Below the pieces are notes generated by a model. The model saw nothing but the letters and a program-made list of their open reading frames with translations, had not been told where the DNA came from and made no database searches. From Blastocystis sp. Blastoise (lineage: Eukaryota > Protista > Bigyra: Opalinata): 64,000 nucleotides of DNA. A program made the translations under genes and the position numbers. Location: NCBI GenBank assembly GCA_039096225.1, contig JBBPEB010000034.1, positions 992,001 through 1,056,000 on the forward strand, in the 5' to 3' direction. This document shows, in pieces, positions 1-55,356 of this stretch (position 1 is the stretch's first letter; the number at the start of each line of letters is the position of its first letter).

Positions 1-627
1 AAAGATATTATTATTCAGAATGATACTGATACGATCCAAACAAATGCATCTAAATTATGTACTGGATATATAAATGGATCATATTATCCTACATTTAGTT
101 TTCCTTTATCGGATAAATATGTTACTTATAGTAATATAAATTCTCCAATCACAATTGATCATAATATAGATTTAAGATTTGATGAATTATTCAAAGGAAA
201 TATAATTTGTAATATATGTGAACCGAATGGTAGTGATATACGTTTCAAAGCTTATGATGAAGTGTATTGTGATTTTAGTACAAGTAAGAATTTAATTTAT
301 GAATTGAAGAAAACCAATGTGTATGGATATCAATACTTAACGAATATACAAATTATATCAGTGTATGGTCAATCCACTGATTACTTATATCCTATTTCAT
401 TAAGATGTTTTACTAATGAATATGAGAATAATATTCATGTTATTGATACTACAAATCTACCTTATTACTATTCGAATGGTATTAAATATGAAGGTATATC
501 CAATAAGATCAATAAGAATGTCTATTATTGTAATCGTAAATTATTAAAGTTATTACCTCATGATAATATGTTCTTTATAACATGTGATTATCCTTGTGTT
601 GTTTTATTAACTATCTCTTATATATAA
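1..627 (+). CDS. Viral hypothetical protein, 5'-truncated by the window edge
   Basis: Frame 1 is open from base 1 (KDIIIQNDTDT...) to TAA at 627 and has no introns. The ORF track's 262 start is an internal GTG. Confidence 0.7.
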   Translation, partial: KDIIIQNDTDTIQTNASKLCTGYINGSYYPTFSFPLSDKYVTYSNINSPITIDHNIDLRFDELFKGNIICNICEPNGSDIRFKAYDEVYCDFSTSKNLIYELKKTNVYGYQYLTNIQIISVYGQSTDYLYPISLRCFTNEYENNIHVIDTTNLPYYYSNGIKYEGISNKINKNVYYCNRKLLKLLPHDNMFFITCDYPCVVLLTISYI

Positions 628-699
628 ATATTTTAATGATATATTTAAATTTAAAAAAAAAATGTTTTGTTATATTATTCATTTAAAAATTATTAAAAA

Positions 700-1122
700 A
701 TGGAGCCTAAATCTGTATCTGAATCCTTACATTCTTTATCAAGTACAAGTTCAACAAGTTCAGATAGTTCAACAACAACCACATTATCAGAAGAAGAAAT
801 AGAAAAGAAAAATACTTTATTAGAATTTATTATAAAAGCTATAAAATGTTTATTTGAGAAATCAACTGAATTCTTTCAATTAATTGTTAAAAATATAGAT
901 ATTCATTGTAATTGTTGTAATCCACAAACAAAGAAAGTCTATTATAAGACAATGAAAATACAACAAACTATTATTGAAGAAGAAGTCAAACATATATCAG
1001 AAGTCTTGAATGAATTAGAAGAAATTGATTCTAATCAAAATGAATCAATACAAGAATTAGCTGTTCAATTAATGAAATTAAATATAAGTGTTGATTCTAT
1101 TGTTCAATCTCTTCATTTATAA
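700..1122 (+). CDS. Viral hypothetical protein (Ser/Thr-rich N-terminus, amphipathic helix, CNCC motif, C-terminal coiled coil)
   Basis: 140-aa ATG-initiated ORF with coding-like composition; no family recognised. Confidence 0.7.
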   Translation: MEPKSVSESLHSLSSTSSTSSDSSTTTTLSEEEIEKKNTLLEFIIKAIKCLFEKSTEFFQLIVKNIDIHCNCCNPQTKKVYYKTMKIQQTIIEEEVKHISEVLNELEEIDSNQNESIQELAVQLMKLNISVDSIVQSLHL

Positions 1123-1449
1123 TTCTATGAAATGTTATAAAATATTAATAATAAACAAGCGTTTCACGACTGGCTACGCCAGCCTACGCTTGAATCTAAA
1201 TAAACATAAAAAAATAATTTGTAAAAAGACTATCTTTTCATTATATAAAAATTATTTATTTCAAATTTTGTTTTATTTTATTAATATTATCAATAATCGT
1301 TTCATAAAAAGAAAATTAAAAAAAAAAAATTAACAATATATAAAATAAAGATTACATTCTATTTCATTAGTAAATATATTTAAATACTTTAAAAACTTTT
1401 ATTATTGTACATAAAATATAGTCTATGCAATAAATAAGTTATTATAAAA

Positions 1450-3800
1450 AAACTCTAAAAAACTATAACATTTTGAAATACATATACTCACTTTTATTAA
1501 AACGAATTTTGTGCTAATATACATATATATTTAATTTATTATTTTAATTTATAAAGAATAATTTGAATCTCTTTTATTTAAAGTCACAATTACAAAAAAT
1601 GAGTTCTTTTGAAAGACACAAAACATTCTTTAAACAATAATAGTTTTGTATTTAGTGACAAAAAAACGTATTATACGGTTTTAGAAACAATTAAAATCAT
1701 TTTACCCATTTTAACATTCCTATCAAACAGTCAACCATGTTTAATTAAACTAATTTTTAATATTTTATGTTCTATAATAAGTCTATTTATTATTTTAATA
1801 AAAGGTAACTTGAATCTCTTGACTTAACTATTGTAATTCTAAAAAAATAATTTTTTGAACAACTTAAAATATTTATTTGTTGTAGATTTTAATATGAAAC
1901 AGTTAAAAAACACTCTATACATACTTATTACAACCATTTTAGAAAAATAGACTCATTTTAACATTTTATTCAAACACACAACCACCTTTATTTCAAACAA
2001 TTCTTTAATTATTATAAACATTAAACACTCTAATACTCATTTTTACAAAAAGTGTATTGAATCTCTTTACTTAAGACAGTCAAACGGACAATTCAAAATC
2101 ATTTTACCCTTTAAACTCATTATAAAGTAATAATATTTATACAATTGCTTTGATATGTGATTTAGGACACATTGAACTACTTTTTACAAAATTTTGAGTC
2201 AACATTTCCAGTTTGTCATTCACTCGTCAACTCCACTTTTGACTGATTTTTTGAGAAATGCAATACATATGTAGTCTAGTTTTCAAATATGTAAAAATTA
2301 ATTGTCAAATATGAATTTGATTTGTCAACTTTCGGAAAATTTTTAGAAAAATGATTTTTCAATTTTCAGTTTTTTAACATGTTATACTATTGACTCTACT
2401 AAACTCATTTCTTAATTAATTTTGAATATTAAAATTTATATTATTAATATGTTTTATTCTCTATATTTATTTGTTATAATTATATAAAATAATTAAATAT
2501 TGACTGAGAAATTAATGTTATAAAGTATACCCTTTTTTCAAAAAATAATTTTTTTATGTTTTGCATATATAATTTTTTATCTCAAAAGTTATTTTATATT
2601 TTGATAATATTTTTCTAAATATATAAACTATATGTTATCTAGTTTATAAATAAGTTTTATTTATTTTATTTAAATTAATATTGATGGAGAAATTGTCAAA
2701 ATAAACTATAGTATCAAAAATGCTTTCTTCTTTTTAAACGACTTATTTCACTAATTAAAGATTTTTAAAAACTAATTTTCTTATTTAAAGCTTATTTATG
2801 ACGTTCACAACTCATAATGACTGATAACTTACTTTTTAGAACAAACATTGTCTGTATCAGTTCAACATGTTGTCTTAACTTTTGTAAATGAGTGACATAT
2901 AGTGTCCACGAATGATTCTAAACACTAATTAAAACGTTTTAAGAGTTTATTAAGTTAACATTGTCTGGTGATCTGTTGTCAAAGTCTTTTAAAAACAAAA
3001 TAAAATAATAAAATATGTTTATTTTGATATGTAGTTTTTGAATATAGTGTCAAATGTCAAATATGCTTGTTAATGATGAAAATATAAACAAAAAACAAAT
3101 GAAAAATTTTTAACAAAATTTTCGAACGTCATTTTTTTATTGAGTTTAACTATTGTCTCCTGTGACTTCATTTTTTAATATTTTAAAAAAATGGCAAAAA
3201 CGGATGACATTTAGGTCGTGCTATATCTAAATAAGCTTTAACTTTATTATTTTATAAAATATTGACTGAGATCTGATGATAACAAAATATACCATTTTTA
3301 GAAAAATTTCATTTTTATGTTTTTAATATAAATTAACATATCTCGGTCAATATTAAATATTAAACAAAAATATAAAAAACGGATGACATTTAGGTTGTCT
3401 AATATCTAAATATGTTTTTATTTTTATTATATATTGAATATTGACTGAGATCTGATGATAACAAAATTGGGTATCAAAGATGAAAAATTTTTATAAACAA
3501 ATATTTTCTTATTAAAAGATATAATTAAAATATAAAACATATTTATGACGGATATAGAGTTAACTAAATACATTAAAGCTCAAATAAGTTTATTAAGAAG
3601 GAATGTGTTGGATATCAGTTTGTCTTTTGTCGTTATTTAAAGGAATTATTGCTATTTCAGAGTAGTTAAAGTCATCTACATTACGCATGTAATCATTTTA
3701 GAGTTTAAAGTTAGTAATGTGTGTATTGATATGTTGTCAAGTTGTAAATATAAACAAATTTACCCGTCAAAACTATTTAATAGACCAACCCGTCAATAAA
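1450..3800. repeat. Diverged tandem-repeat non-coding region (about 247-bp, 180-bp and 760-bp periods)
   Basis: TTGAATCTCTT at 1563/1810/2057. CATTTTAACATT at 1707/1954. AAAACGGATGACATTTAGGT at 3197/3376. A 30-bp identical block at 3259/3438, with related copies at 2497/2678. Confidence 0.75.
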
Positions 3801-4180
3801 AGTTAATTTTATAAAAATAAATATAAAGAATGTGAGTAGATATAGGAAAAATAAGAAAACAATAAAAAATGAAAAACGAAAAATAAGTGTTTTTATAAAA
3901 ATGAAGAATATTGGATAAAATAAAAATAATCCAATAATTTTGGTTAAAATTTTGTGCGAAAATGGTTTTTTGCGTTTTTTAGCCAGAAATTTAGACTTTT
4001 CGAAAAATTTCTTTAACAGCCATTTTCAGAATTGTGTTCCGGATTTTATGATGTTATTTTTATTTTATAAAAGCTAATAACAAATTCAATAAAGGTGAAA
4101 GTGTGTGAGACACCGTACGCTACATGAACTAAATTAAGGATATTAATTTGTTTTGTTTATAAATAATTTAATTTTTAATA

Positions 4181-5977
4181 ATGCAATCAACAGGTTATTC
4201 AGATAAAGATTGTGAAGAATTCTTTACAAATTGTATAGATCAATTATTACATTGGAAGAAAATACAATTATCAACAAGTATAAATTGGAAGAAATGGATC
4301 AAGACAATATGTAAGAAATTTCGTAATGAAGAACGAATTCAAATAGATGATATGGAAGAACCGTTCTTTTGTGTAGAAGTGTTAACAGATCCATTTCAAT
4401 TTCAAAATGTTATGCAACATACACAAACAGAAGCTCCTGGACAACAAGGTGGATTATCCAATACTACTGTAGCTAATTATATGCAAATGATTACTTATAT
4501 AATGAAGAATATATCTATTTGTACAGATGATGAAGATATCATTAATTATAAAGCATTTACTCCACAAAATATAAAGAAATGGGAACATTTATGGGGTTCT
4601 TTACAAATTGATGCTACTTACTCAAGACATTATGAAATCACTCAGAAAATTATTAATTGTGAAGCTGATTGGGGAGAAATCATTAATATCACCAAAAAGA
4701 ATTATTTAGAGAATCCTAATGATTTATATTATGTGAATAGTTATTTATTAGTTTTAACTTATGATACACTCTGTGCTCGTAATGATTATAATGATTGTGT
4801 AATCTATACTCGTGGTCAACAAATTCCTTTATCGTTAAGAAGAACAACTAATTATATTGATTTAAATACTTTAACTATTCATGTGAATGATACAAAAAAT
4901 CGATTTGAAATTGGTAAGAATGAATATCCTACTTATCAATATTTATCAGAAGAATATTTGAATGTCTTAGCTAGATCCTTACGTTTATTTCCAAGACATT
5001 ATTTATTTGTTACTGAAAATGGTGGTAAAGTACGTGATTTGAAATTTGGTGATGAATATATAAAACCCCATTTAGGCTGGATTTATAAAACACAACAGAA
5101 TAATTCTTTAATTAATGGTTGTGATATTATAAGACATTTATTTGCTCAATATTATTATAGATTATCAAGAGAAGCACAATTCCAACATAATGATTCAGAA
5201 CACGAATCTAAAGGTGTAGAACTGTTTGAAAATTCGATTATGAAGATGTTACATAGTCAATCAACACATATGGAAAATTATATATCTCCTTATTTATCTT
5301 CTCATTCAACTAAATTGCAAGATTTAGATAATAAAACAAGAACATTTCATATTGATATGAATAATATTACTTATACAAGAGAAATTAATCAATTAAATAA
5401 ATTATTATTTTTATGTAAACGATTTAATGATCGTATAGAACAATATGAAGAAGACTATGAAGATGTATTTGGTAAAGAGAATTTCAATATGAAATCAGAA
5501 TCGATATTAAGTAGTCTAGAACAATATTCATCAGATAATGATACTATAATGATTACATTAAGATATTATAAAGATCTATTAAAGCATAAGTATCCTGATA
5601 AAAACGATTTAGAAAATGAATTACCTGTAGGATGTTCATTAGAATCTGAAGAAGTTCCAGAGAATTCTAGAGATCGTTATAATCGTTTTATACGTAATAA
5701 ACAATTATTACCTGATCATTTACATAATAATACAACGGATTCAGAATTAACGAATACTCAAGCATCTCTTATGCAACAAAATACTCAAGATGAAAACTCT
5801 ACACCTATAGTTATGAATAATTCAGATACTTATGCATTACGTAGTCTTTCTACTATGCCTCCTTTAGAACCTATTCATCGTGGTCATGGTTTATTGAAAA
5901 AACATAAAGGTAATGCATTCTTTAAAGTCAAAGTCCCTAAAAAACATTTTCATGGAATTCAATTTAAATTTTATTAA
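4181..5977 (+). CDS. Tyrosine recombinase/integrase (PLV/virophage type) with a long C-terminal extension
   Basis: Catalytic motifs in order: ARND (R), NYI..., NDTKN (K), YLF, DIIRH (R), MLHS (H), HMENY (Y). Confidence 0.75.
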   Translation: MQSTGYSDKDCEEFFTNCIDQLLHWKKIQLSTSINWKKWIKTICKKFRNEERIQIDDMEEPFFCVEVLTDPFQFQNVMQHTQTEAPGQQGGLSNTTVANYMQMITYIMKNISICTDDEDIINYKAFTPQNIKKWEHLWGSLQIDATYSRHYEITQKIINCEADWGEIINITKKNYLENPNDLYYVNSYLLVLTYDTLCARNDYNDCVIYTRGQQIPLSLRRTTNYIDLNTLTIHVNDTKNRFEIGKNEYPTYQYLSEEYLNVLARSLRLFPRHYLFVTENGGKVRDLKFGDEYIKPHLGWIYKTQQNNSLINGCDIIRHLFAQYYYRLSREAQFQHNDSEHESKGVELFENSIMKMLHSQSTHMENYISPYLSSHSTKLQDLDNKTRTFHIDMNNITYTREINQLNKLLFLCKRFNDRIEQYEEDYEDVFGKENFNMKSESILSSLEQYSSDNDTIMITLRYYKDLLKHKYPDKNDLENELPVGCSLESEEVPENSRDRYNRFIRNKQLLPDHLHNNTTDSELTNTQASLMQQNTQDENSTPIVMNNSDTYALRSLSTMPPLEPIHRGHGLLKKHKGNAFFKVKVPKKHFHGIQFKFY

Positions 5978-6021
5978 TTTTAAAACAAAACAACTTTTTA
6001 TAATAAAAAATAAATATATAT

Positions 6022-9000
6022 TTAATTTGGTATAGCATATAAAGTATTATCTATTAAAATTCGTTTTGTTGATGACGTATTATGATATTGATCTTCACTA
6101 TAAACAATTTCTTCTTTCTTAGATAAACAATTGGATAAACAGAATAAATCTGTATCCACACATTCATTATAAGTATTATCAATCATTAAACCACAAATAC
6201 CAATAGCATTCCCTCCCTTATAGAAATTTGAAGTATGTTTTCTATGAATATTCACAATATCTATAGAATTGAATGTATCTTTACTACTTAAACAACCAAA
6301 TAAAGCATTTGTAAATTTATCTAAATCCTTCTTAATCGTAAATTGATTATTATTATTCACTTTCTTATAACTATTAAAAATATCTTCAATAGTAACTACA
6401 TTCAAATAATAAGGATCTATAGTCATATGGTTATCAACAAAAGATTTCAAATCATATCCTTCTGTACTACGATCAAAGAATCGTTTCTTACATTCACTTA
6501 TATGATATTCATTATCTAATTCATGCATATCTAATTGCATACTAGAATAGAAATAATTACTTACTAGATAACTAAAGATAATAGAACGATTCTGATAGAA
6601 TTTATCGGATAGAGTATAATCCATTTCATAATGATTGGGTTTCAATCTCTTTTCTACTGTCTGTTTACGTTTCGGTAAATTATGATCTACATAATCTTCA
6701 TATAAATTAGCATTACCAGGAGGGAAATAACGACAACATGAAGGTAAGAAACACACTCTTCTTTCAATAGGACCAGCATTCACAGCAGTAGGTTGAATAT
6801 TACTTGTCATAAATAAAGTACCCGTGAAATGAACTTTTGTAAATATATTACTGAATAATTTACGAGCACTAGCACCTTCTTTCTTTTCTGCTATTTCTTT
6901 AAATACTTTAGAAGAGAATGGATTAAATGTTTTCTTTCTACCAGTAACATCTTCTTCTATTAATTCATTCATATAATACATTGTTTTATTAGACATATCT
7001 ACAATCTTAGGAGCTATAGATGTTTCTTCTAAATTATCTGGATTTACTATAATACATTGATTACTACCTACAATACGAGAAATTAAATCAGTTGTTATTG
7101 TTTTACCATTACTACCTGTACTACCATATAATATATAAGAAACAGTTTTCTGAGTATTGACATAGAAAGCAGTGGTTAAGATACGTAACATAATACTTTC
7201 ATATTTCTTATCGAATTCACAATATCTTGCAATATGTTGTTCAAATAATTGGATAATATCTTTCTGTTCATTATTAATATTCCAACTGACATTAAATTCA
7301 GTATCAATTAATAAATCTTCAAATACCATATCTTCTTTATGATATGGTTGGATATAATATTGTCTAGGATCTTCTTCTGTTGATTCTTTTGGATATAAAT
7401 AACCAAGTTGTGTATAGATAACACGTTCTTTATGAACCATATACGTATCTAAATATTCTTTATAAGATTTACCATAAGTCTTCAAATAACGATTCAACCA
7501 TTCTTTATAATGATATTCATTAGTAACAGAAGCAGACATTATTTTATCAACTATTTTTTGATGTTGTTCATTCTCTTTAGAATATAATCTTGATAATTTG
7601 AATTTCTCTACAATCGATTTCATAAATGTAGTTATTTTGGTTTCAAAGAAATTAATATCATAATTATTCTTACAACGTCTTAAGATATTATATTCATCAA
7701 ATGTATATAAGATAAAATTATCTTTATCTAATATAATGGAAACAATTTCATTAAATTCTAATAATTGAAATAACATAACTAATGTTTGTGAATCTACAAG
7801 ATTAAAGGATTGAATACATTCTAAAATAGACATAAATATGAAATCATTATCATCATCTTTATTAAATAATTTATTATCCATTAATATCTTCAAAATATAA
7901 TTATTCGATAAATGAGTAGGATCAACTTGTATATGATTCCATGTAGATTCAATTACATCATCACTTCGATCATGACCATAACGTAATGAATAATTTTTAA
8001 ATAATTCTAATCCTCTTGTTGTATTACAAATCTGTTTTGCTGCACAACATAATTTATACCAAGTATTATGAGATTCAAAATAATTCATATCTTCAATAGA
8101 ACCAATCAATAATAAATATCGTTCTAATAAAGCTTCTTTAGATGCTGTAGTATCCAATATAGTATCTGTAGAAATCAACATAGGAATATCTTTAATATCT
8201 TGTATAGAACATAATATAGTACGTGAACAATTATTTAATCTTGCATAATAACGTTTATAACGTGAATATTGTTTTAATTTATAAAAGATAATAGGATTAA
8301 TAATATCACTTATAATATCATCTTCATTCTTATAATTCAATAATGTTTTGAAATAATAATGTTCATCGATTTCTCCTTCTATTTTCTTCCATGATTTATT
8401 TGTATATTCTTCGTATAATTTATAAGTAGATGGAGAATTATCTTTACTACAACCAAGAAACATACAACCATTATTCTTTCTTGGTTTACCAATAACATTA
8501 TAATCAATGAATTCTTTTATATCTAAATTATTCATTTTACATAAATCAACCAATTTTGTATTCAGAATCATACTATTATATAAGAAAAATAAATAATCAC
8601 CATTTACAAACCAATTTGTATATATGTGAATTCCCCATGAATAATGTATTTCATTATGAACTGTCTTCTTATTCACTTCTTTCTTTGTATACACAAGCGA
8701 AATAAATTCTTGATTATAATAATGAATACAATGATTACATATTTCTTCAATAAATTCATGAATAAATGAATCTGTTAGAAAAGAAAAATCATTTGATATT
8801 TGGTGATAATCTAAATCAAACCATAATCTTCTATAATTAGTTGATGTATTACAAGGAGTACAATCAATATAATGTAATAATTCTTTTGGATTTTGGTAAT
8901 TAGTAAATAGACTTTTATAAAATGGTAATGGATTTGGTATAATAATTTCACTATGATTATCTTTTGAATTATCATGATTAAAGGAACCAAAAGTATAAAC

Positions 9001-9024
9001 AAAATGAATTTGTGAATTTTCCAT
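6022..9024 (-). CDS. D5-like primase-helicase (AEP + PriCT-2-like + SF3 helicase)
   Basis: AEP motifs WFDLD, WGIHIY and DYNV...FLGCSK. PriCT-2-like segment HNTWYKLCCAAK...LELFKNYS. Walker A YGSTGSNGKT, Walker B YYMNE, motif C FMTSN, Arg finger ERRV. First ATG is at 9024 (MENSQ). Confidence 0.9.
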   Translation of the reverse strand: MENSQIHFVYTFGSFNHDNSKDNHSEIIIPNPLPFYKSLFTNYQNPKELLHYIDCTPCNTSTNYRRLWFDLDYHQISNDFSFLTDSFIHEFIEEICNHCIHYYNQEFISLVYTKKEVNKKTVHNEIHYSWGIHIYTNWFVNGDYLFFLYNSMILNTKLVDLCKMNNLDIKEFIDYNVIGKPRKNNGCMFLGCSKDNSPSTYKLYEEYTNKSWKKIEGEIDEHYYFKTLLNYKNEDDIISDIINPIIFYKLKQYSRYKRYYARLNNCSRTILCSIQDIKDIPMLISTDTILDTTASKEALLERYLLLIGSIEDMNYFESHNTWYKLCCAAKQICNTTRGLELFKNYSLRYGHDRSDDVIESTWNHIQVDPTHLSNNYILKILMDNKLFNKDDDNDFIFMSILECIQSFNLVDSQTLVMLFQLLEFNEIVSIILDKDNFILYTFDEYNILRRCKNNYDINFFETKITTFMKSIVEKFKLSRLYSKENEQHQKIVDKIMSASVTNEYHYKEWLNRYLKTYGKSYKEYLDTYMVHKERVIYTQLGYLYPKESTEEDPRQYYIQPYHKEDMVFEDLLIDTEFNVSWNINNEQKDIIQLFEQHIARYCEFDKKYESIMLRILTTAFYVNTQKTVSYILYGSTGSNGKTITTDLISRIVGSNQCIIVNPDNLEETSIAPKIVDMSNKTMYYMNELIEEDVTGRKKTFNPFSSKVFKEIAEKKEGASARKLFSNIFTKVHFTGTLFMTSNIQPTAVNAGPIERRVCFLPSCCRYFPPGNANLYEDYVDHNLPKRKQTVEKRLKPNHYEMDYTLSDKFYQNRSIIFSYLVSNYFYSSMQLDMHELDNEYHISECKKRFFDRSTEGYDLKSFVDNHMTIDPYYLNVVTIEDIFNSYKKVNNNNQFTIKKDLDKFTNALFGCLSSKDTFNSIDIVNIHRKHTSNFYKGGNAIGICGLMIDNTYNECVDTDLFCLSNCLSKKEEIVYSEDQYHNTSSTKRILIDNTLYAIPN

Positions 9025-9109
9025 GATTATTTGACTTATAAATAATGAAAATAAATATGGTATAAAATTCAAAACAAATAATATATTAAAGATTCTAGAA
9101 GTCAGTTTT

Positions 9110-9241
9110 AGAAGCTTCTAGAACATTCTAGAATATTCAGGAACATTCTATAATAGTAAATATTACTTTATATTTTTAAATGTTCTAGAACCTTCGAGAA
9201 CATTCTAGAACCTTCTAGAACCTTCTAGAACCTTCTAGAAC
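9110..9241. promoter_or_regulatory. Two heat-shock-element arrays (8 and 12 in-phase inverted nGAAn units) upstream of the primase-helicase
   Basis: 9110-9149: aGAAgcTTCtaGAAcaTTCtaGAAtaTTCagGAAcaTTCt. 9182-9241: gTTCtaGAAccTTCgaGAAcaTTCtaGAAccTTCtaGAAccTTCtaGAAccTTCtaGAAc. Confidence 0.8.
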
Positions 9242-9350
9242 ATCATTTTTATACTTTAGTGTTTTAAATGTATATACAATAAACAAAACAATTTTCAATG
9301 ATTTTTTACAAGTTTATAAGTAAAACTAGAAAAATAAACAAGAAAAATAA

Positions 9351-9974
9351 TTAAATTTCAATTGGTTCTTGACTATTAATATATGTACATGAATGAGGCC
9401 ATCCATTTTTATCATATAAAATACCATCCCAGAAATACATTTGTTTTGAAGGATCTCTTTTAATCTTGTTAATACTCTTAGCATGAACAACTTCATAAGA
9501 ATAAACTTTACCTTTTTCATCATAAAGGAATCCATCTTCCATATGGAATTTCATAATATCAAAATCATCATCTTTAGAATTCGAATGTTCTTTAGAATCT
9601 TCAGAACATAAAATAGTAGTTCTATCACTTTCTAAAAGATCTTCAGTATTGATAATATCTTGAATATCTTGTTCTTCATTAAGTTGTTGAGTATAAATAT
9701 CAGCAGCGAATTCTTCATAATCTTCAAGACCTTTAATAACCGCGTTTATACGTTTTAAAGCTGATCTATAGTTTTCGACTTCGAAAGAAGCAAGACGTTC
9801 TTTAGATTTTGCAATACCCAATAGATTCTTTTCTCTATTCAATTGAGACTGATGTAAATCAATATCACGAAGAACATTCTTATGAACTTCAACAGCCTTC
9901 TTAGAATTCTTAAGAAGTTCCATACGAACAGTTTGAAGACATTTACGGGAATCAGCAGAAAGATTAAATTGCAT
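9351..9974 (-). CDS. Viral hypothetical protein with an N-terminal coiled coil
   Basis: ORF from ATG 9974 (MQFNLS). Heptad-like N-terminal half; C-terminus has two DG.LYD..G repeats (DGFLYDEKG, DGILYDKNG). Confidence 0.75.
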   Translation of the reverse strand: MQFNLSADSRKCLQTVRMELLKNSKKAVEVHKNVLRDIDLHQSQLNREKNLLGIAKSKERLASFEVENYRSALKRINAVIKGLEDYEEFAADIYTQQLNEEQDIQDIINTEDLLESDRTTILCSEDSKEHSNSKDDDFDIMKFHMEDGFLYDEKGKVYSYEVVHAKSINKIKRDPSKQMYFWDGILYDKNGWPHSCTYINSQEPIEI

Positions 9975-10084
9975 TATAATCGCGAATATCGTTACAGAGA
10001 GAAAATTTGTATTTATCAAAATGAAATAAATAATACATTTAAATGGAATATTAAATATTCTAGGAGACAGTGTAGAATCTCTAT

Positions 10085-10256
10085 GGAATGTTCTAGAAGG
10101 TTCATTTGATTGGCTAATTTTGTCGACTTAGCATTTTTTATTTGTGTTTCAATGACGAGTATAGTCGGCATCTGTAATCTGATTGGATAAAAAAATTAGT
10201 AAAACACAATTAGACGATGACAACGATGTGTCATACGAAATAAGCTATTTTATTGG
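10085..10256. promoter_or_regulatory. Divergent promoter with a 4-unit HSE and three ATTGG (CCAAT) boxes
   Basis: gGAAtgTTCtaGAAggTTCa at 10085-10104. ATTGG at 10109, 10182 and 10252. Lies between divergent ORFs. Confidence 0.55.
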
Positions 10257-10372
10257 CTTATTTTCCAGCTGGAAGCAATAGGCTTTTGTTAGCAACTGAA
10301 ATGAAGAACTGTACACTAAAAATAGTATATTTAATATATTGTATAAAAATACTTTTGAAGGTTTAAATAATC

Positions 10373-10900
10373 ATGGAAATTCCTGATAGTCTTTCTGCCA
10401 GTTTATCCCCTTTCGGTCAAGCCATGATATCCCCCTTGTTGAATCCATTTGAAAATAGTGTTTCTGCAAATCCTATGGCTTTACCCAATGATAATGATTT
10501 CTGTTTTAATTCGCGTGACGAAATCATATTTGAAGATCCACCTCAAGAAATTCATCCAATCAATGATGTTTATGTATCTAAAAATCCAGATAGATATCAT
10601 TCGGTTAACAATCAACCAATACAATTTCAAGATCAAGTAAATACAAATCCTAATAAGCAAGCATTATTATTTACAAATGAGGAGTTAACAAATATATCCA
10701 GTCAATTCGAATCTTTATTTCAAACTATGGAAACAGCTGATAATATATTAAATAGTATTTATTGTACTGTTGATCATTTAAAAACAAAGATTGAAAGTCA
10801 GAAACAAGATTTGAAACAGATTCATGATGATTCTAAAGAAATTGTTTCATTATTATCCGAATATTCTATTCCTTCTATGTCTGAAATATTTGATCATTAA
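10373..10900 (+). CDS. Viral hypothetical protein with a disordered N-terminus and C-terminal coiled coil
   Basis: 175-aa ATG ORF; Pro/Ser-rich start; heptad pattern LTNISSQF...IVSLL. Confidence 0.75.
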   Translation: MEIPDSLSASLSPFGQAMISPLLNPFENSVSANPMALPNDNDFCFNSRDEIIFEDPPQEIHPINDVYVSKNPDRYHSVNNQPIQFQDQVNTNPNKQALLFTNEELTNISSQFESLFQTMETADNILNSIYCTVDHLKTKIESQKQDLKQIHDDSKEIVSLLSEYSIPSMSEIFDH

Positions 10901-10990
10901 TTATTTTTATTTAATTAATTATTTTGTTTTGTTTATTTTTTTTTAATTTAATTTCACAAAGTTTAAATGGAAAATAGAATAGTTTCAAAT

Positions 10991-11098
10991 AGAATTCTTG
11001 AATGGTCTAATGGATCTATTAAAGAAATATGTAACTACAGTATCATGGTTCGATTCCGTTAAAATGTTTCCATTAGATTATTCAAGTGTTCTTTTTTT
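10991..11098 (+). ncRNA. Putative Pol III (type 2 promoter) panhandle RNA with VA-RNA/vault-RNA-like architecture
   Basis: A box TGGTCTAATGG (11003-11013), B box GGTTCGATTCC (11047-11057) and T7 terminator (11092-11098). The 5' end (10991-11014) pairs with the 3' end (11069-11092), including G-U pairs. Confidence 0.7.
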
Positions 11099-11145
11099 CT
11101 AGAACCTTCTCGAACATTCTAGAACCTTCTAGAACCTTCTCGAAA
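11096..11145. promoter_or_regulatory. HSE array (10 units) upstream of the SSB-like gene
   Basis: tTTCtaGAAccTTCtcGAAcaTTCtaGAAccTTCtaGAAccTTCtcGAAa, ending about 75 bp before ATG 11221. Confidence 0.8.
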
Positions 11146-11220
11146 ATTGATTCATTTGAAAAGAATATCGTAAAATATTAGTATTAAAATACTTATATTT
11201 TTACTAAATACTTAACTAAA

Positions 11221-11814
11221 ATGTCTTCAACTGAATTTAAGAAACCTGCTATTCTTGATACTTCTAACTTTAATTTACAATGGGATGACACCAAAGAAAA
11301 TGCTGTTCTTTTAAATAATAATCATCGTGTATGTATTTCTACTGATGCTACACCATGTTTATTTGGTTATATTGTTACACGTGACAAATGGACTTTATTA
11401 ACAATTGAAGATGATAATCAAGTATTCTTAACTGCTTATAAAGAACTTTATCGTAAATTATGTGAATTATGTCCTGATGGTGATATTGTTAATTTTGTAC
11501 GTATGGATAATGGTAAATATAAGATTACAATTAAAGTACCTATTAATGCATCGAAGAATGTTACTATTGATATTACTGATAAAAGAGATAAGAAGATTAA
11601 TATCGGTAAAGATCCTAAGTTAACTTACGAAGAAATACGTGAAAAGTATATTCCACCAAATACGTTATGTAAAGTATTATTTACAATACATGGTATTCAT
11701 CGTTATAATAACAAGTATTATATTGGTTTATATGCTCGTTCTATTAAAGTCATCGATAAATCTACGAAGAATACTAATAGTAATGATACTATTATTGATT
11801 TAACTAATTTATAA
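11221..11814 (+). CDS. Probable viral single-stranded DNA-binding protein (OB fold, NCLDV/T7 gp2.5-like)
   Basis: About 200 aa. ISTDATPCLFGY and YYIGLYARSIKV resemble recalled motifs of this SSB family; short acidic/hydrophobic tail. Not searched. Confidence 0.55.
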   Translation: MSSTEFKKPAILDTSNFNLQWDDTKENAVLLNNNHRVCISTDATPCLFGYIVTRDKWTLLTIEDDNQVFLTAYKELYRKLCELCPDGDIVNFVRMDNGKYKITIKVPINASKNVTIDITDKRDKKINIGKDPKLTYEEIREKYIPPNTLCKVLFTIHGIHRYNNKYYIGLYARSIKVIDKSTKNTNSNDTIIDLTNL

Positions 11815-11889
11815 ATTTTTAATGTTAAATTTATTTTTTATTAATATATTTGTTTTGTTTATAAATAATTTTATAATTGAAATAAAAAA

Positions 11890-13518
11890 ATGCAAAGTTG
11901 TATATTAGGAATGCCAAGTCCTGGTACTTTTGGTATGAATTTAATTTCAACTGGAAAAGAATATAGGCGATATAATACACAACCATTACATAAAATGGAT
12001 CAATATAATCCAATATTTCATGAAATAGGTCCAAATTCATCTATGCCTGTGTCTACTTTAGAAAGTAAAGAAATACATGATGGTAAAGAAGATGATTATG
12101 TAGATCGTTCTAAAACATTTGGTAAAGATGCTGTTCCACAAGGAAATGGTGCTTTAATTCGTGCTAGAGCAGCAGGTAAAGGTGTAATGAAAGCAGCTGG
12201 TCCAGAAGAAGATAAAATAGATGGTGAAGATCGTCAATATAAAGTATTAAATCCATGTAAACCAAGACGTAAATCTGGTAGAGGAATTATTCCAAATAAA
12301 TCAGAAATCAATAAATTAGAGAATAATCAAGGTTCTGGTATTGGTGATGCAATTAAAAATAAAGTAAAAGATATGTATCAACGAAATGTATTAGATATAA
12401 GAGATGCTATTGTAGATAAGAAAGCAAATAGAAAAGCTCGTGATGCATTAGCTATTTTAGCTCAATATGTTGGTGACGGTCATCATGATCTTGATGATGA
12501 ATTCAAAAGATTCTATGAACATAAAATTAAACGTGGTGGAAAAATTCCTATATCAGTTGCTTCAGCAATTATGAATGCAATCAAAAATAAGAAAATAATT
12601 AAGAATCCAAAATTAAGAAGAATGTTAAGACCTTCAATTATACCAAAATATATAGATTTAGATTCAGCTCAAAGTGGTGATGGTATATTAAGAGTAAAAA
12701 GAGGTGGTGGATTCTGGAGCGGATTAATGGATTATGCACCAGCTCTATTAGGTGTAGTTGATAAAGGTATGGATTCTTTTGCTAAAGGTAGAAAAGCTTA
12801 TTATGATACACATTTGGCACAACAATCAAGTGAATTAAATGATATGGAATTTGAAATGGAAAAATTAAAACGTCAACAAGCATTAAATGAAATGAAAAAA
12901 CAAATAGGTTCAGGAAATACTATAAATAAGATGTTTGAAGGATATTATGATGTAGCTGATGAAATGCAAGATGCTCTTGACGAAGATGATAGATTACATC
13001 CACAACCCGTTGTTCAACCTCCACCACCTCCACAACAACAAGTTGTTAGACCTCCTCAACCTCAACCTCCTCAACCTTATAAACCAATGTCTCGTGATGA
13101 ACAAAGTTATCCTTATAAGATTTATGGTTTCCCTCAAAATGATAAAGAGAAAGTCGATAGAAAATGGAAAGAAGATGAAAGGGATAAACGAATAGCTGCA
13201 AGAAGAGCTAAACGTAGAGGATATGGTGGTCGAGTTAAATTAAGTAAAGAAGAATTCTTAGAACGAATGAGAAGAGGAAAAGAAGCTAAAAAGAAAAGAG
13301 GTGGTGAATTACCTCCATTGGTAACAGCTTATACAGATTTTGTAATACCTGCACAAGTAGAACAAAGGAAACGTAAAGTAGCTAAAAATGATTTAAAACA
13401 ATTGCAAATTATAAAACAGAAAATGGATAATAATGAAATATTAGATAGAGGTGAACAAATGTTTTGGAAAGAAAAGAAGTATATGTTATCAAAAAACTCA
13501 GGGGAGGGGATCTGGTAA
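11890..13518 (+). CDS. Basic core/DNA-condensing-like precursor with repeated G-x-G / GG putative protease sites
   Basis: K/R-rich with a Pro/Gln tract. Motifs SGRGI, QGSGI, KRGGK, SGDGI, KRGGGF, IGSGN, YGGR, KRGGE, SGEGI. Lies directly upstream of an adenain-like protease. Confidence 0.65.
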   Translation: MQSCILGMPSPGTFGMNLISTGKEYRRYNTQPLHKMDQYNPIFHEIGPNSSMPVSTLESKEIHDGKEDDYVDRSKTFGKDAVPQGNGALIRARAAGKGVMKAAGPEEDKIDGEDRQYKVLNPCKPRRKSGRGIIPNKSEINKLENNQGSGIGDAIKNKVKDMYQRNVLDIRDAIVDKKANRKARDALAILAQYVGDGHHDLDDEFKRFYEHKIKRGGKIPISVASAIMNAIKNKKIIKNPKLRRMLRPSIIPKYIDLDSAQSGDGILRVKRGGGFWSGLMDYAPALLGVVDKGMDSFAKGRKAYYDTHLAQQSSELNDMEFEMEKLKRQQALNEMKKQIGSGNTINKMFEGYYDVADEMQDALDEDDRLHPQPVVQPPPPPQQQVVRPPQPQPPQPYKPMSRDEQSYPYKIYGFPQNDKEKVDRKWKEDERDKRIAARRAKRRGYGGRVKLSKEEFLERMRRGKEAKKKRGGELPPLVTAYTDFVIPAQVEQRKRKVAKNDLKQLQIIKQKMDNNEILDRGEQMFWKEKKYMLSKNSGEGIW

Positions 13519-13610
13519 AGAGTAAAGATGAGAAACTTATTCAAAATTCAATGAATTGTGATAATCCTATTATATCTGATAAAACTCGTCATGTTACTCC
13601 TAGATCCCCT
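13491..13610 (+). other. Putative programmed -1 ribosomal frameshift signal
   Basis: In-phase A_AAA_AAC at 13491-13497, a 7-nt spacer, then a stem pairing 13505-13532 with 13585-13610. The -1 frame is the protease ORF. Confidence 0.75.
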
Positions 13611-14084
13611 GATAATTTTAAACAAACTCTATCTCAATATTGTAATATACCCAATTCTTTAATATCTCAATTATATAATTATGCTTATTTAAATAAACCT
13701 ACCTCTTCTGTTGCTTGTGATCGTGCTGAAAATGTTATGAAACAATTAAATAAAACAAATTCTCAATCTTATAATTATTATAATAGTTATGATGATTTTG
13801 AACAAAATATAGATCAAGATCAAACTAAATTTAATATGATCTTTCATGAAAGTCCTAGTGATCCTTATAATGGTCATTTTGAAGCTGTTATTTATAATGG
13901 TAATAAAAACATAGAACACTATTCATCATTAGGAAATAAACCTACTTTTTCAAAATCATTTATTCAAAATCATAATATTCAATATAATCCTATTCAACAC
14001 CAAAAAACTACAAGTAATGCAAATGGTTGCTTTTATTATTCTTTACTTTATTTACTTTCTAATGGAAATCTTATGCCTTGTTAA
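13497..14084 (+). CDS. Adenain-like (Polinton/PLV-type) cysteine maturation protease; -1 frame relative to the core ORF; first in-frame ATG at 13551
   Basis: NGHFEAV (catalytic His), HYSSLG (FDSFG-like position), IQYNPIQHQ (oxyanion Gln), NGCFYYSLLYL (catalytic Cys). Same order as adenovirus/Polinton proteases. Confidence 0.75.
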   Translation, partial: LRGGDLVKSKDEKLIQNSMNCDNPIISDKTRHVTPRSPDNFKQTLSQYCNIPNSLISQLYNYAYLNKPTSSVACDRAENVMKQLNKTNSQSYNYYNSYDDFEQNIDQDQTKFNMIFHESPSDPYNGHFEAVIYNGNKNIEHYSSLGNKPTFSKSFIQNHNIQYNPIQHQKTTSNANGCFYYSLLYLLSNGNLMPC

Positions 14085-14087
14085 AAC

Positions 14088-14107
14088 CTTCTAGAATATT
14101 CTAGAAT
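14088..14107. promoter_or_regulatory. HSE (4 units)
   Basis: cTTCtaGAAtaTTCtaGAAt upstream of ATG 14171. Confidence 0.65.
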
Positions 14108-14170
14108 CTCTAATTTATTATATTAATATTTTGTATAATTAATTTGTTTTGTTTATTATTTAATACTATA

Positions 14171-14326
14171 ATGACAAAGAAACGATTTGGCAATTACTAC
14201 TTAGATCGTAGTGCAGAAACTTTAGAGAATGTAAATGAAATACTGTCAGTTATTGAAATTGTTCTTATTATTATATATATTTTACTTTACTTTTATATGT
14301 CCAAGAAACGTTCTAGAACATTCTAG
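14171..14326 (+). CDS. Small single-pass membrane protein (51 aa)
   Basis: MTKKRFG... with hydrophobic ILSVIEIVLIIIYILLYFYM followed by basic KKRSR; has its own upstream HSE cassette. Confidence 0.55.
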   Translation: MTKKRFGNYYLDRSAETLENVNEILSVIEIVLIIIYILLYFYMSKKRSRTF

Positions 14327-14334
14327 AACATTCA
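14310..14334. promoter_or_regulatory. HSE (5 units)
   Basis: gTTCtaGAAcaTTCtaGAAcaTTCa, overlapping the stop of the 51-aa ORF and upstream of ATG 14429. Confidence 0.65.
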
Positions 14335-14428
14335 TTTTGAACTGGCTCTATTTGTAGAATCTTTAATTTATTATATTAGTGTTTTATATAATTAATTTGT
14401 TTTGTTTAATCATTGGTTAATTTAAATA

Positions 14429-14803
14429 ATGAACAAGAAATATCTTAGTTATTCTTATTTTTGTCGTGTGATGAAGAATCTAAAAGAAGAAGGAATTAAA
14501 TCTAAAAAGAATGAAATAGCGAATCTATTAGAACAATTTTTAAATAACAATAACAGCAAAAATCTTAGTGATTTACAACTAAGTTATTGTAGAAATATGT
14601 TACTTTATATAGATGATCCTGTGATTCATCAACGTCTTGAAATGCTATTGGATAAACAATATATGAAGAATGAGAATCAATATCAAGATGATAAGAATCT
14701 TATTCAACCCAATAATATGTTTATGCCTACTATGAAAAGTAATCAACAACAAAATCAATACCAAAATAATAATAATAATCTATCTTTCTTACCTTTTAAT
14801 TAA
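14429..14803 (+). CDS. Viral hypothetical protein (helical, Q/N-rich tail)
   Basis: 124-aa ATG ORF with an upstream cassette shared with ORF 14171. Confidence 0.65.
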   Translation: MNKKYLSYSYFCRVMKNLKEEGIKSKKNEIANLLEQFLNNNNSKNLSDLQLSYCRNMLLYIDDPVIHQRLEMLLDKQYMKNENQYQDDKNLIQPNNMFMPTMKSNQQQNQYQNNNNNLSFLPFN

Positions 14804-14876
14804 TTTTTATATCCTTTTATTACTAGTTGTTTAGTTATATTCAAAATTAAAACAAAACAAACATAAAAACATAAAA

Positions 14877-15812
14877 TTATTCAATTAATTTTTTAAATAA
14901 ATTATTATTTTCTAAAGATACATAAGAATTAATATGTGTATAATCATTATGACATAAAGCAGAAGCAGAATTTTCTATATCTTGGAATGTATTGGTTGTA
15001 GTTGTAGCATATAATTTTCTTAATGCATTAATGGTTAATTTTGGATGGATTTGTTTTAAATGCTTATTCACAAACCAATCAAATGCTTTAGTAGTAAATC
15101 CAGTTCTTACAGAAGATTCAAATATAAATTTACGATTTGGATTTCTTTTTAAGAGTAATTCTAGATCTTCAATCAATTCTTTTGGTGCATCTAATTGAAT
15201 TGTAGAGTATTTACCAGCAGTTTTATAATCATTCAATAGAATAGAACCAGTGTGTTTCTCTTTATCATAAACAATATAATTCTTATGAATAACTGGATCA
15301 ATAGTGTCTTCTGGAGTTAGAATGAATAATTGAGCATAATCAGCACGAGCAGGAGGAAGATAGGAGTAAAAATCTAATATTAATCGTAATGGATTATAAT
15401 TTTCTAATTTATCGTGATATTCATGTAAATATGGAGTCGTAATACCATCTTTAATAAGATCTTGAATCAAAGTGCGTTTCTTATTATCCAGATATTTTTC
15501 ATACATAGAATTGATAATCACATAAAATTCACACCATTTATTTAAAATACCTTCTTTATTTAATGAAGAAACATTACGTATAATAAATAATATCAATTCA
15601 CATAACGATTTCATTGGACTAATTTTGATTTTACGTTCATTTACCATATAATCCATGAATGAATAAGGATTCTTTAAGAATTCTGAGAATTTTTTAAATG
15701 GTAATGGGAAAATATATAAGTTGAAATAATTGGTTAAACGTTTTTTCCAAATATCAGAATAATTTGAATTCTGTATAACAGAAAGATACTTGTCATAATT
15801 TGTATTTTTCAT
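14877..15812 (-). CDS. Second tyrosine recombinase (PLV/virophage/NCLDV type)
   Basis: LPPARADY (R), NYIVY, LNDYKTAGKY (K), FIF, NALRKLYAT (R), ALCHN (H), HINSY (Y). First ATG is at 15812. Confidence 0.85.
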   Translation of the reverse strand: MKNTNYDKYLSVIQNSNYSDIWKKRLTNYFNLYIFPLPFKKFSEFLKNPYSFMDYMVNERKIKISPMKSLCELILFIIRNVSSLNKEGILNKWCEFYVIINSMYEKYLDNKKRTLIQDLIKDGITTPYLHEYHDKLENYNPLRLILDFYSYLPPARADYAQLFILTPEDTIDPVIHKNYIVYDKEKHTGSILLNDYKTAGKYSTIQLDAPKELIEDLELLLKRNPNRKFIFESSVRTGFTTKAFDWFVNKHLKQIHPKLTINALRKLYATTTTNTFQDIENSASALCHNDYTHINSYVSLENNNLFKKLIE

Positions 15813-15899
15813 TGATTTTCTCAAGTAGAATCTTTAAAACTTCTATTTTCAAAAGAATAATACATAAGAAAATCAAAATAAAATATCTAAGATTCTCAT

Positions 15900-15949
15900 G
15901 TTCTCGAATGTTCTAGAAGTTTCGAGAATGTTCTAGAATATTCTAGAAA
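15900..15949. promoter_or_regulatory. HSE array (10 units) upstream of the second tyrosine recombinase
   Basis: gTTCtcGAAtgTTCtaGAAgtTTCgaGAAtgTTCtaGAAtaTTCtaGAAa, about 88 bp upstream of ATG 15812 (minus strand). Confidence 0.8.
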
Positions 15950-16547
15950 ATTTATATTTTTCCATAACGGTTACCCTTGTTTCCAAAAGTCTCTCGTTAT
16001 AATCGTGGTGGTGGGTACATCTTTTTACAAGACCACACCACCACCAGCTTTTCTTTCACCCACTATAAATACATACCTTGATCACTTTACTCTTTTTATA
16101 TAATTTTTTTATGATTATCATGACTTTTTATATTATTTATTGATCACTATACATACATTTTTATTTTTATATATTCCCGTGATTATTTTTATTATTTCTT
16201 TTTAGATAGAACCATCCATTTCATCTTTTCTCTATATAAAGGGAGGGTCGGGGTGTGTGTTTATTTAGCACATTCTGTGCTTCTTTTCGTATTTCTTTCT
16301 GTATTCCCGTGATTATTTTACTCACTTTACCAACGATGGAGTCATTTTCCATGAATATTCCCTGTAAAGGGGAGGGTTGGACTGTGTATTTTATTTCTTT
16401 TATGATTACTATGAGTTTCTCCTTGATCACTTTACGTTTCACGTTGGAATCGGAACACAAATAAATTAAAAATAAATAAACATGGGAAAAAATAAATACA
16501 CACACACACTACCCTACACTCCCATGGTTATTTTACTTCAGAAATGT

Positions 16548-16673
16548 TATTAATTCTTCCGTCGAGAACAAAAAGGGGGGATGACTTCCCCGCTTATGGC
16601 TGCGCGCGTCGCGCAGACTCTATGCGGGGTTTGCATACCCCCTTCTGCAGTTCGAAGAACGGAAGAATTAATA
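16548..16673. repeat. GC-rich imperfect palindrome/hairpin at the inferred provirus end
   Basis: Nested arms TATTAATTCTTCCGT/ACGGAAGAATTAATA, GAAC/GTTC, AAGGGGG/CCCCCTT, CCCCGC/GCGGGG, CTGCGCG/CGCGCAG. Confidence 0.9.
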
Positions 16674-17831
16674 TAAATTACCAGATGATGTAACCCTGTT
16701 CATATTTTCTTCAGGTGGTTTTCTGGTTAAAGAATCTGAATCAATCAAAAGCATAATAGGTTATGACTCCATTTCAACTCTCAACTTATATATATGTTTA
16801 GTATGATTTATTATATATTATATATCTATTTATATATAGGTACAATTAAGATGTCAATATAATAGTGAAACACTATTTTGCCATTGTACATGTAAATAAA
16901 TATTTTATTATATATATATATATATTTTATATAGTTCCACTATGGAATATATTTGGAAAAGAACAAAAACTTGCATGTGGATCAGTTCATTTCGACTGTA
17001 TATTGAATTAATTTTTGTTTTCAAACAATAAATCTATTGAATTATCACTTTTGTATATAGATACATGTGATCTACATCAATTTCTAATGTCATACAAAAA
17101 CTATAAAGTTCGTATCGACATTATTTCTTTAGAATGTATGTTATATTTTCATCAATTAGTTATTTATTCTTTCAAAATGATGTTTATAGACACAAAACAG
17201 ACTATATGTATTGAATATGACTCACGACCATGCAATTCTAGAGTATTTTATAATATGAAAAAGCTGCAAATAAGCTGTATATATATTTATTATTATTAAA
17301 TTATATTTATTTTGTATAGTGGGGGAACTGGATCGAACAGCTACAAAATATTTACAACAACTTTTAGAATCCTCCTTTTTTGTTTGTGATAATATTGTTA
17401 TAACAGGTATTTATTTTATTATTATATATTATTTATATAGGTGAAAAAATTCCTGAATGGGTACGTACATCTCTTCAATACGTATCAGGCATAAAAAATA
17501 TTAATATAAATTGGGACTTATCATGTATTATTTTATTTTTAATATATAATATCTCCATATTTATAGTACACACAATATTTGACTATGAAATATTACCTAA
17601 TATAAATGAAAATTCTGTGGATGGTATATATATATATATATTTTCATTATGTGCTTTGTAAAATATATTCTAATTACTATAGTAAATCTTCAGACTCCAA
17701 TGCCTATACAGAACAGCTCTCCAATATCATTAATAAGTGTTCAGTCAATAAATTCTATTATGGAGAATAAATGCATTTATGACCCAATTAAAGGTATGTG
17801 TTATGATTGTATTGATTAAAAAACGATTTAG

Positions 17832-54889: not shown

Positions 54890-55111
54890 TTAATTACTAA
54901 ACTTATCAAATTTGGAAAAATCAAAAATATTCACTTTTTCTTCAAACGACCTTCTACAATAACGTTTTTTGGCAGAAAAAGTTCTTTTCTTCTCACAAAT
55001 CTTTTTGTATCTATTTTTTCTACTTGGTCCTCTTTTTCTAATAGCATATAATGGTGGCCATATTGGTGGATTTGATAAAATCAAAAAATCTGTTCCTATT
55101 AATTGACTATA

Positions 55112-55144
<33 letters not shown>

Positions 55145-55287
55145 AAGAAGATATAATAACAATAAAAACGGTGGATATAATAATAGTAGTAGTTATAATC
55201 ATAATATAAAAGACAATAAACATAATAGTAGAGATAATAGATATAATAGATATAATAGATATAATAGATATAATAGATATAATAGAG

Positions 55288-55356
<69 letters not shown>

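Follow-up and report, generated by a model that had tools for sequence, protein, structure and literature searches.

ONSEN (COPIA78) and other heat-responsive copia elements of the Brassicaceae carry binding sites of the heat shock factor (HSF) type that have grown by duplication of proto-sites (PMC3907296, PMC5059998). HSF1 acts at the HIV long terminal repeat (LTR) and at the Q promoter of EBV, where the target is the replication protein EBNA1 (PMC9157408). Integrated Polinton-like viruses (PLVs) are common in protist genomes, and the trigger described for them in the literature consulted is a helper giant virus; in the Tetraselmis PLVs S2x, a D5 helicase-primase is found alongside a tyrosine recombinase (10.1101/2025.10.09.676808). 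A Blastocystis hominis MELD virus encodes PolB and an adintovirus-like integrase (PMC8502044). Here, a PLV-like element was analysed in a 64-kb window (i.e. the whole stretch of DNA examined, positions 992,001–1,056,000 of the forward strand of contig JBBPEB010000034.1, assembly GCA_039096225.1) of Blastocystis sp. Blastoise. Arrays with the geometry of heat shock elements (HSEs) precede its replication genes and one of its two recombinase genes. We read them as sites for host HSF, the activation of which would switch on copying and mobilisation of the element; in our judgement this reading as a whole is about equally probable to hold or to fail.

Arrays with the geometry of heat shock elements

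The window was scanned by script for arrays of at least three strictly alternating nGAAn/nTTCn pentamers. Exactly seven were found, all within the first 16 kb, and the coordinates and unit counts (8, 12, 4, 10, 4, 5 and 10) given in an initial annotation of this DNA were reproduced (Table 1). Markov simulations, run 30 times at order 2 on the window and 100 times at each of orders 2 and 4 on its first 16.7 kb, gave a chance expectation of 0.02–0.03 arrays of four units and of zero longer ones. No array of at least three units was detected by the same scan in the host part of the window (16.7–64 kb), as the annotation had claimed, though this part is a weak control because none of the 27 host open reading frames (ORFs) scanned was a heat-shock-protein gene.

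The distance from array to next ATG is 63–157 nt for all seven arrays, on both strands, which agrees with the 60–220 bp upstream of a viral ATG first proposed and places the arrays on the predicted promoter side. Six separate sites bear arrays, none of them inside a replication gene. No array lies upstream of recombinase 1, the core gene, the protease or the ORF starting at 700, and the earlier statement that none stands directly before the core and protease genes or recombinase 1 was borne out by measuring the gaps. The two convergent (i.e. tail-to-tail) gaps, both of them short (44 and 73 nt), contain no array. Array 5 begins 4 nt past the protease stop and array 6 overlaps the final codons of the 51-aa ORF. 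Upstream of two arrays no gene ends.

Of 53 units, 43 have an A directly before GAA, and the two bases of the TTC-nn-GAA gaps are TA in 18 of 24 cases, so that the arrays favour TTCTAGAA. Constraint was assessed over 22 internal units with all eight positions of TTCTAGAA weighted equally. Changes were observed at 1 of 132 GAA/TTC positions as compared to 6 of 44 TA positions (Fisher p 0.001), and a rough tally of distinct changes gave a p of about 0.009. Array 2 contains TTCTAGAACC in three identical consecutive copies and, in the region of array 5, positions 14099–14155 are 91% alike to 14352–14408. Slippage probably built the arrays, and something is likely to hold their GAA/TTC triplets fixed. 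Fixed GAA/TTC with variable spacers had been taken as the mark of a selected site, which stands in so far as changes avoid these triplets; the pattern alone is not specific to HSF, as it recurs in phage replication-initiator genes and in bacterial DNA.

An HSE comprises at least three inverted nGAAn units in 5-bp phase, and the seven arrays hold 4–12 perfect units. The consensus from chromatin immunoprecipitation of yeast Hsf1, TTCTAGAAnnTTCTAGAA (PMC6340206), has eight overlapping matches in the window, all within arrays, this consensus being that of yeast and possibly not that of the host. One HSF of the oomycete P. infestans binds TTCTAGAA in electrophoretic mobility shift assays, preferring three units (PMC11267843). 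A match of the array units to the HSF optimum, including TA between TTC and GAA, is supported at the level of sequence. Whether the host encodes an HSF was checked in a supplementary table with genus-level counts, in which 2–3 proteins with the HSF domain (IPR000232) are listed for each of eight Blastocystis genomes (PMC10690189); a literature search for studies of Blastocystis HSFs found nothing specific. Scans of the element ORFs detected no HSF-like domain and no other DNA-binding family, nor a DNA-binding fold for the small ORFs scanned, and no RNA polymerase gene was found among the element ORFs within the window. Binding of the arrays by host HSF appears rather probable.

Several HSF trimers would bind an array cooperatively, 4–12 units leaving room for one to four trimers. 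Host RNA polymerase II would transcribe the primase-helicase, SSB and recombinase 2 genes and four small ORFs as an early wave, and the core and protease genes, which have no arrays, would come on later or through read-through. Copying and mobilisation would be set off by HSF activation, the probable cause of which is heat or protein-damaging stress. The arrays may have grown as a 10-bp unit underwent slippage and local duplication, GAA/TTC being kept fixed by selection. That stress triggers activation of the element we judge to fall a little short of an even chance, the least certain parts being heat, rather than a life-stage cue, as the signal and the predicted excision of the element by recombinase 2. 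A wider proposal is put forward more tentatively, namely that of a helper-independent Polinton-like provirus whose whole early programme (i.e. primase-helicase, SSB and excising recombinase) would be wired to host HSF via saturating HSE arrays; in the gut it would be induced by thermal or proteotoxic stress, as prophages are by SOS, and related elements in gut metagenomes may share the switch.

Opposing observations and competing explanations

Several observations weigh against activation of the element through host HSF. Recombinase 1 has no array, and no double jelly-roll major capsid protein, penton protein or A32 packaging ATPase was recognised in the window, whose first ORF is cut by the window start. 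The element probably extends past the left end of the window, and an array-binding protein of its own may therefore lie outside. Among the six TA changes, four represent a single variant seen in both orientations, and some arrays are near-copies of each other (arrays 2 and 4 are 94% alike), so that the units are not independent. Reactivation of PLVs and virophages as known so far is by a helper giant virus, that of mavirus proceeding via the late transcription machinery of the giant virus (10.1101/2025.10.09.676808). Of the P. infestans HSFs tested, most recognise ungapped GAATTC and are encoded by genes that follow spore stages (PMC11267843), so that HSF binding need not mean heat. The remaining objections come from other sequence collections. 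A scan of IMG/VR with a six-unit pattern gave 68 loci with 31 distinct arrays, 18 of them inside ORFs of at least 120 aa; seven of these 18 ORFs belong to phage replication-initiator families and the HSE shape therefore arises without HSF, probably as iterons. An eight-unit pattern scan of JGI metagenomes gave 40 loci, from which 111 ORFs were scanned (the three longest per locus). Bacterial-type genes were present in five of these loci, and none of the 111 ORFs matched a heat-shock-protein family.

Copia domains were found in three of the 40 JGI loci and a KDZ-transposase domain in one, the arrays there having at least eight units. The JGI picture is mixed: mobile elements carry such arrays and so do bacteria, in whose DNA homogeneous arrays are also present. 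We know of no HSF in bacteria. Possible further ONSEN-like elements (L009:2913-2957, L019:2633-2677, L014:138-187, L010 and L043) are marked by arrays of 9–18 units next to copia and KDZ domains and by three arrays ahead of an ORF that looks, by inspection, like a transposase. The exact array pattern of the element had no match in IMG/VR; the eight-unit pattern there gave four loci, three of which are copies of a single simple repeat and the fourth a phage locus, and the element proteins had no tblastn match in loci L001–L044. A recurring iteron-like form of HSE-shaped array was seen inside phage replication-initiator genes or beside a DnaB-like gene (L063, L071, L073, L079, L082, L092, L046 and L002). 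On two small viral contigs, six-unit arrays between Cap-like and Rep-like ORFs (L093:1484-1511 and L108:998-1025; labels by inspection) lie upstream of the Rep-like ATG and could be HSEs or iterons.

In one alternative, host HSF does bind the arrays but is constitutively active or follows a life stage (e.g. encystation), and the arrays serve as strong enhancers or as a developmental timer rather than as a heat switch. It is favoured by the small number of HSF-domain proteins in Blastocystis (only 2–3) and by yeast Hsf1, which holds some sites without stress. The inducible occupation of 69 of 74 targets by yeast Hsf1 (PMC6340206) and the dimeric and trimeric sites in the Hsp70 promoters of P. 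infestans (PMC11267843) argue the other way, and always-on replication genes would be costly to a provirus. We regard this alternative as unlikely, though credible. The initial annotation had moved directly from HSF sites to heat induction, a step that is not supported as argued, since HSF binding in stramenopiles does not equal heat induction.

Alternatively, a protein encoded by the element may bind the arrays as an iteron-like origin, as an autoregulator or as a viral transcription factor, their HSE appearance reflecting convergence on a palindromic 10-bp period. The TTCnnGAAnn period inside the phage replication-initiator genes fits such a binder, as do the same period in L093 and L108, the position of the longest arrays ahead of replication genes and the part of the element that probably lies outside the window. 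An iteron-type origin is one cluster in or beside the initiator gene, whereas the arrays here occupy six dispersed sites at similar distances before ATGs, none of them within a replication gene. TA middles fill none of 24 gaps in eight phage replication-gene arrays (the eighth, L046, being labelled by inspection) and 8 of 99 gaps across the 31 distinct IMG/VR arrays, as compared to 18 of 24 here, and the small ORFs scanned show no DNA-binding family or fold. An element-encoded reader is in our view rather improbable. That the arrays are only slippage products of a palindromic 10-mer, or DNA or RNA hairpins (e.g. 3'-end signals), with no sequence-specific protein reader is quite improbable: the consecutive TTCTAGAACC copies in array 2, the likeness between arrays, the homogeneous arrays of bacterial DNA and one array at a convergent-gene junction of a giant-virus contig (L084) speak for it, but changes avoid GAA/TTC, two arrays have no upstream gene end, both convergent gaps are without arrays and a separate motif already marks 8 of 12 gene ends.

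Gene content, copies and relatives of the element

The gene labels initially assigned (SSB, protease, primase-helicase and recombinase motifs) hold up as predictions (Table 1). A replication and integration module of the PLV type (i.e. primase-helicase plus tyrosine recombinase) appears to be present, as does a putative adenovirus-type maturation protease, which many PLVs have. The description of the element as a PLV-like provirus is thus borne by primase-helicase, recombinases and protease; no capsid or packaging gene was found in the window, so that the label rests on these other genes. Terminal repeats or att sites were searched for from 15850–17000, and no match to another end within the window was obtained.

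Table 1. Arrays, ORFs and other features of the element, with positions in the window
Feature	Position	Strand	Remarks
5'-truncated ORF, 208 aa visible	1-627	+	probably element gene; no family match; TGTTTTGTT motif 35 nt past stop
140-aa ORF	700-1122	+	probably element gene; weak family matches; without array
3-kb non-coding stretch	1154-4144		internal repeats 3168-3288/3347-3467 and 1704-1827/1951-2074; short GC-rich palindrome near 1150-1185
Tyrosine-recombinase-like protein 1, 598 aa	4181-5977	+	R, K, RH, H and Y motif positions align with recombinase 2; without array
Primase-helicase, 1000 aa	6022-9024	-	PHROG 1156, E 2.6e-9; P4-family primase C-terminus, E 1.3e-8, below its cut-off
Array 1	9110-9149		8 pentamers; 85 nt upstream of primase-helicase ATG
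Array 2	9182-9241		12 pentamers; 157 nt upstream of primase-helicase ATG
207-aa ORF	9351-9974	-	no function assigned
Array 3	10085-10104		4 pentamers; divergent gap between ORF 9974(-) and ORF 10373(+); 110 nt to ATG of the former, 268 nt to that of the latter
175-aa ORF	10373-10900	+	C-terminal part with generic coiled-coil-type matches only
Array 4	11096-11145		10 pentamers; 75 nt upstream of SSB-like ATG
SSB-like protein	11221-11814	+	nearest Atlas clusters Nucleocytoviricota DUF5871/DUF2738 (0.94-0.95), recognition below threshold
Basic core-like protein, 542 aa	11890-13518	+	three (I/V/K)KRGG motifs; without array
Adenovirus-type cysteine protease	13551-14084	+	Atlas 0.94-0.96 to clusters with PF00770 in 13-62% of members; no Pfam match; without array
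Array 5	14088-14107		4 pentamers; 63 nt upstream of 51-aa ORF ATG
51-aa ORF	14171-14326	+	hydrophobic stretch
Array 6	14310-14334		5 pentamers; 94 nt upstream of 124-aa ORF ATG
124-aa ORF	14429-14803	+	predicted four-helix fold, pLDDT 75
Tyrosine-recombinase-like protein 2, 311 aa	14877-15812	-	weak PF00589 match, E 0.08; ARADY, YKT, LRK, H and Y motifs kept in 42% relative
Array 7	15900-15949		10 pentamers; 87 nt upstream of recombinase 2 ATG
Imperfect GC-rich hairpin, 126 nt	16548-16673		near probable right end; z -8.5 as DNA

The recombinase label of both proteins rests on aligned motifs and a weak Pfam match, and the SSB-like label on DUF2738, which we take to be an SSB family; the predicted structure of the SSB-like protein was too poor to use (pLDDT 35). 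The (I/V/K)KRGG motifs of the core-like protein are presumably cleavage motifs of the adenain type. For the model of the 124-aa ORF no Foldseek match was obtained at E 0.001 in PDB or BFVD, and sequence searches against PDB were empty or returned chance matches. A proposed resemblance of the C-terminus of the ORF at 10373 to HSF-binding protein 1 was not supported, this family being absent among 17 Pfam matches at E up to 10. Beside array 3, the divergent gap 10105–10372 contains three CCAAT boxes and ATGACG-like words, which suggests further host factors. The hairpin near the right end had no Rfam match (four weak miRNA matches were far below gathering scores) and is preceded at 16060–16530 by short dispersed repeats of TTCCCGTGATTATTTT and CCTTGATCACTTTAC; together they are a candidate origin, att region or structured RNA. 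In the host part, genes for a galactosyltransferase, RME-8 (several exons), ARPC4, an apyrase and a piece of a proteasome ATPase lie within 20934–60170, and a MULE transposase with a SWIM finger at 55107–56243.

The motif TGTTT(T)GTT occurs at about 662, 4148, 5984, 9282, 10924, 11850, 14144, 14397 and 14851. It is located 13–71 nt past the stop in 8 of 12 element ORFs versus none of two host ORF ends, and it resembles the Blastocystis downstream gene element, whose core TGTTGTT has been reported in human-associated and not in tortoise-associated isolates. If the host belongs to the tortoise clade, as its AT-rich, low-complexity DNA leads us to guess, the element may derive from another lineage or retain the signal of one. 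One sequencing-run contig joins 1153 to 4145 (weakly, with 25 letters on the short side), and 1154–4144 may therefore be an insertion inside the element; without it, the motif at 4148 would fall directly behind the ORF at 700–1122.

Seven of ten element protein look-ups were found in the protein collection. In the six clusters that contain proteins of the window, every named member listed is from Blastocystis sp. Blastoise. Members number 19 in the primase cluster and 21 in that of recombinase 1, with a median identity of 98–99% among those listed, and since the members of these long-gene clusters are near-identical we infer about 20 young copies. Relatives at 42–53% identity are present on Logan/ENA contigs of up to 24–27 kb. 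A second primase-helicase family, 42% identical, was also observed (P0092, P0147 and P0148), with three members under the same organism name. A profile search of 1.84 billion representatives gave nine matches at E up to 1e-10 and six weak ones, indicating that the family is small and isolated. No relative was confirmed in protein-seeded scans of IMG/VR, JGI metagenomes, GTDB genomes and phage records. Contigs of three sequencing runs were compared with 1–9300, and one run covers 25 of 30 bins, the bin with arrays 1 and 2 not among them.

Comparison with known systems

No description of HSE control of a PLV or virophage was found in the accessible text of the open-licence PMC and bioRxiv literature, and the accessible parts of preprints on punuivirus latency and egoviruses contain nothing on HSF control or on this element. 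What is predicted here is ONSEN-like HSF regulation on a Polinton-like element. If the arrays are HSF sites, a host signal by which the element is woken is identified; for Blastocystis, a gut eukaryote that is very common, there would also be a candidate inducible virus and a strong, compact promoter.

The phage initiator arrays (L063, L071, L073, L079, L082 and L092) share with those described here the TTCnnGAAnn period, a length of at least six pentamers and a link to replication, but they form one or two clusters inside an ORF and have non-TA middles, whereas the arrays of the element are almost wholly non-coding, dispersed and TA-centred. The MELD virus is likewise a mid-size double-stranded DNA element from Blastocystis datasets, and its virion proteins are very divergent. 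In place of the primase-helicase and the two tyrosine recombinases seen here, it has PolB and an adintovirus-like integrase. S2x and mavirus/EMALEs are also integrated mid-size DNA elements, and the gene content of S2x resembles that found here. These elements are woken by a giant virus, whereas the promoters of the present one, which has no capsid gene in the window, look host-read.

ONSEN provides the parallel: it is mobile, duplication has enlarged its HSF-type sites, and its activation is tied to the host heat response, as is predicted here. As an LTR retrotransposon, ONSEN has one promoter and demonstrated induction, whereas this is a DNA element with six array-bearing promoter regions and predicted induction. 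As in the case of HIV and EBV, host HSF would drive genes of a latent virus; those are animal viruses with individual sites, whereas the element of Blastocystis carries perfect arrays of 4–12 units before seven ORFs of a protist element.

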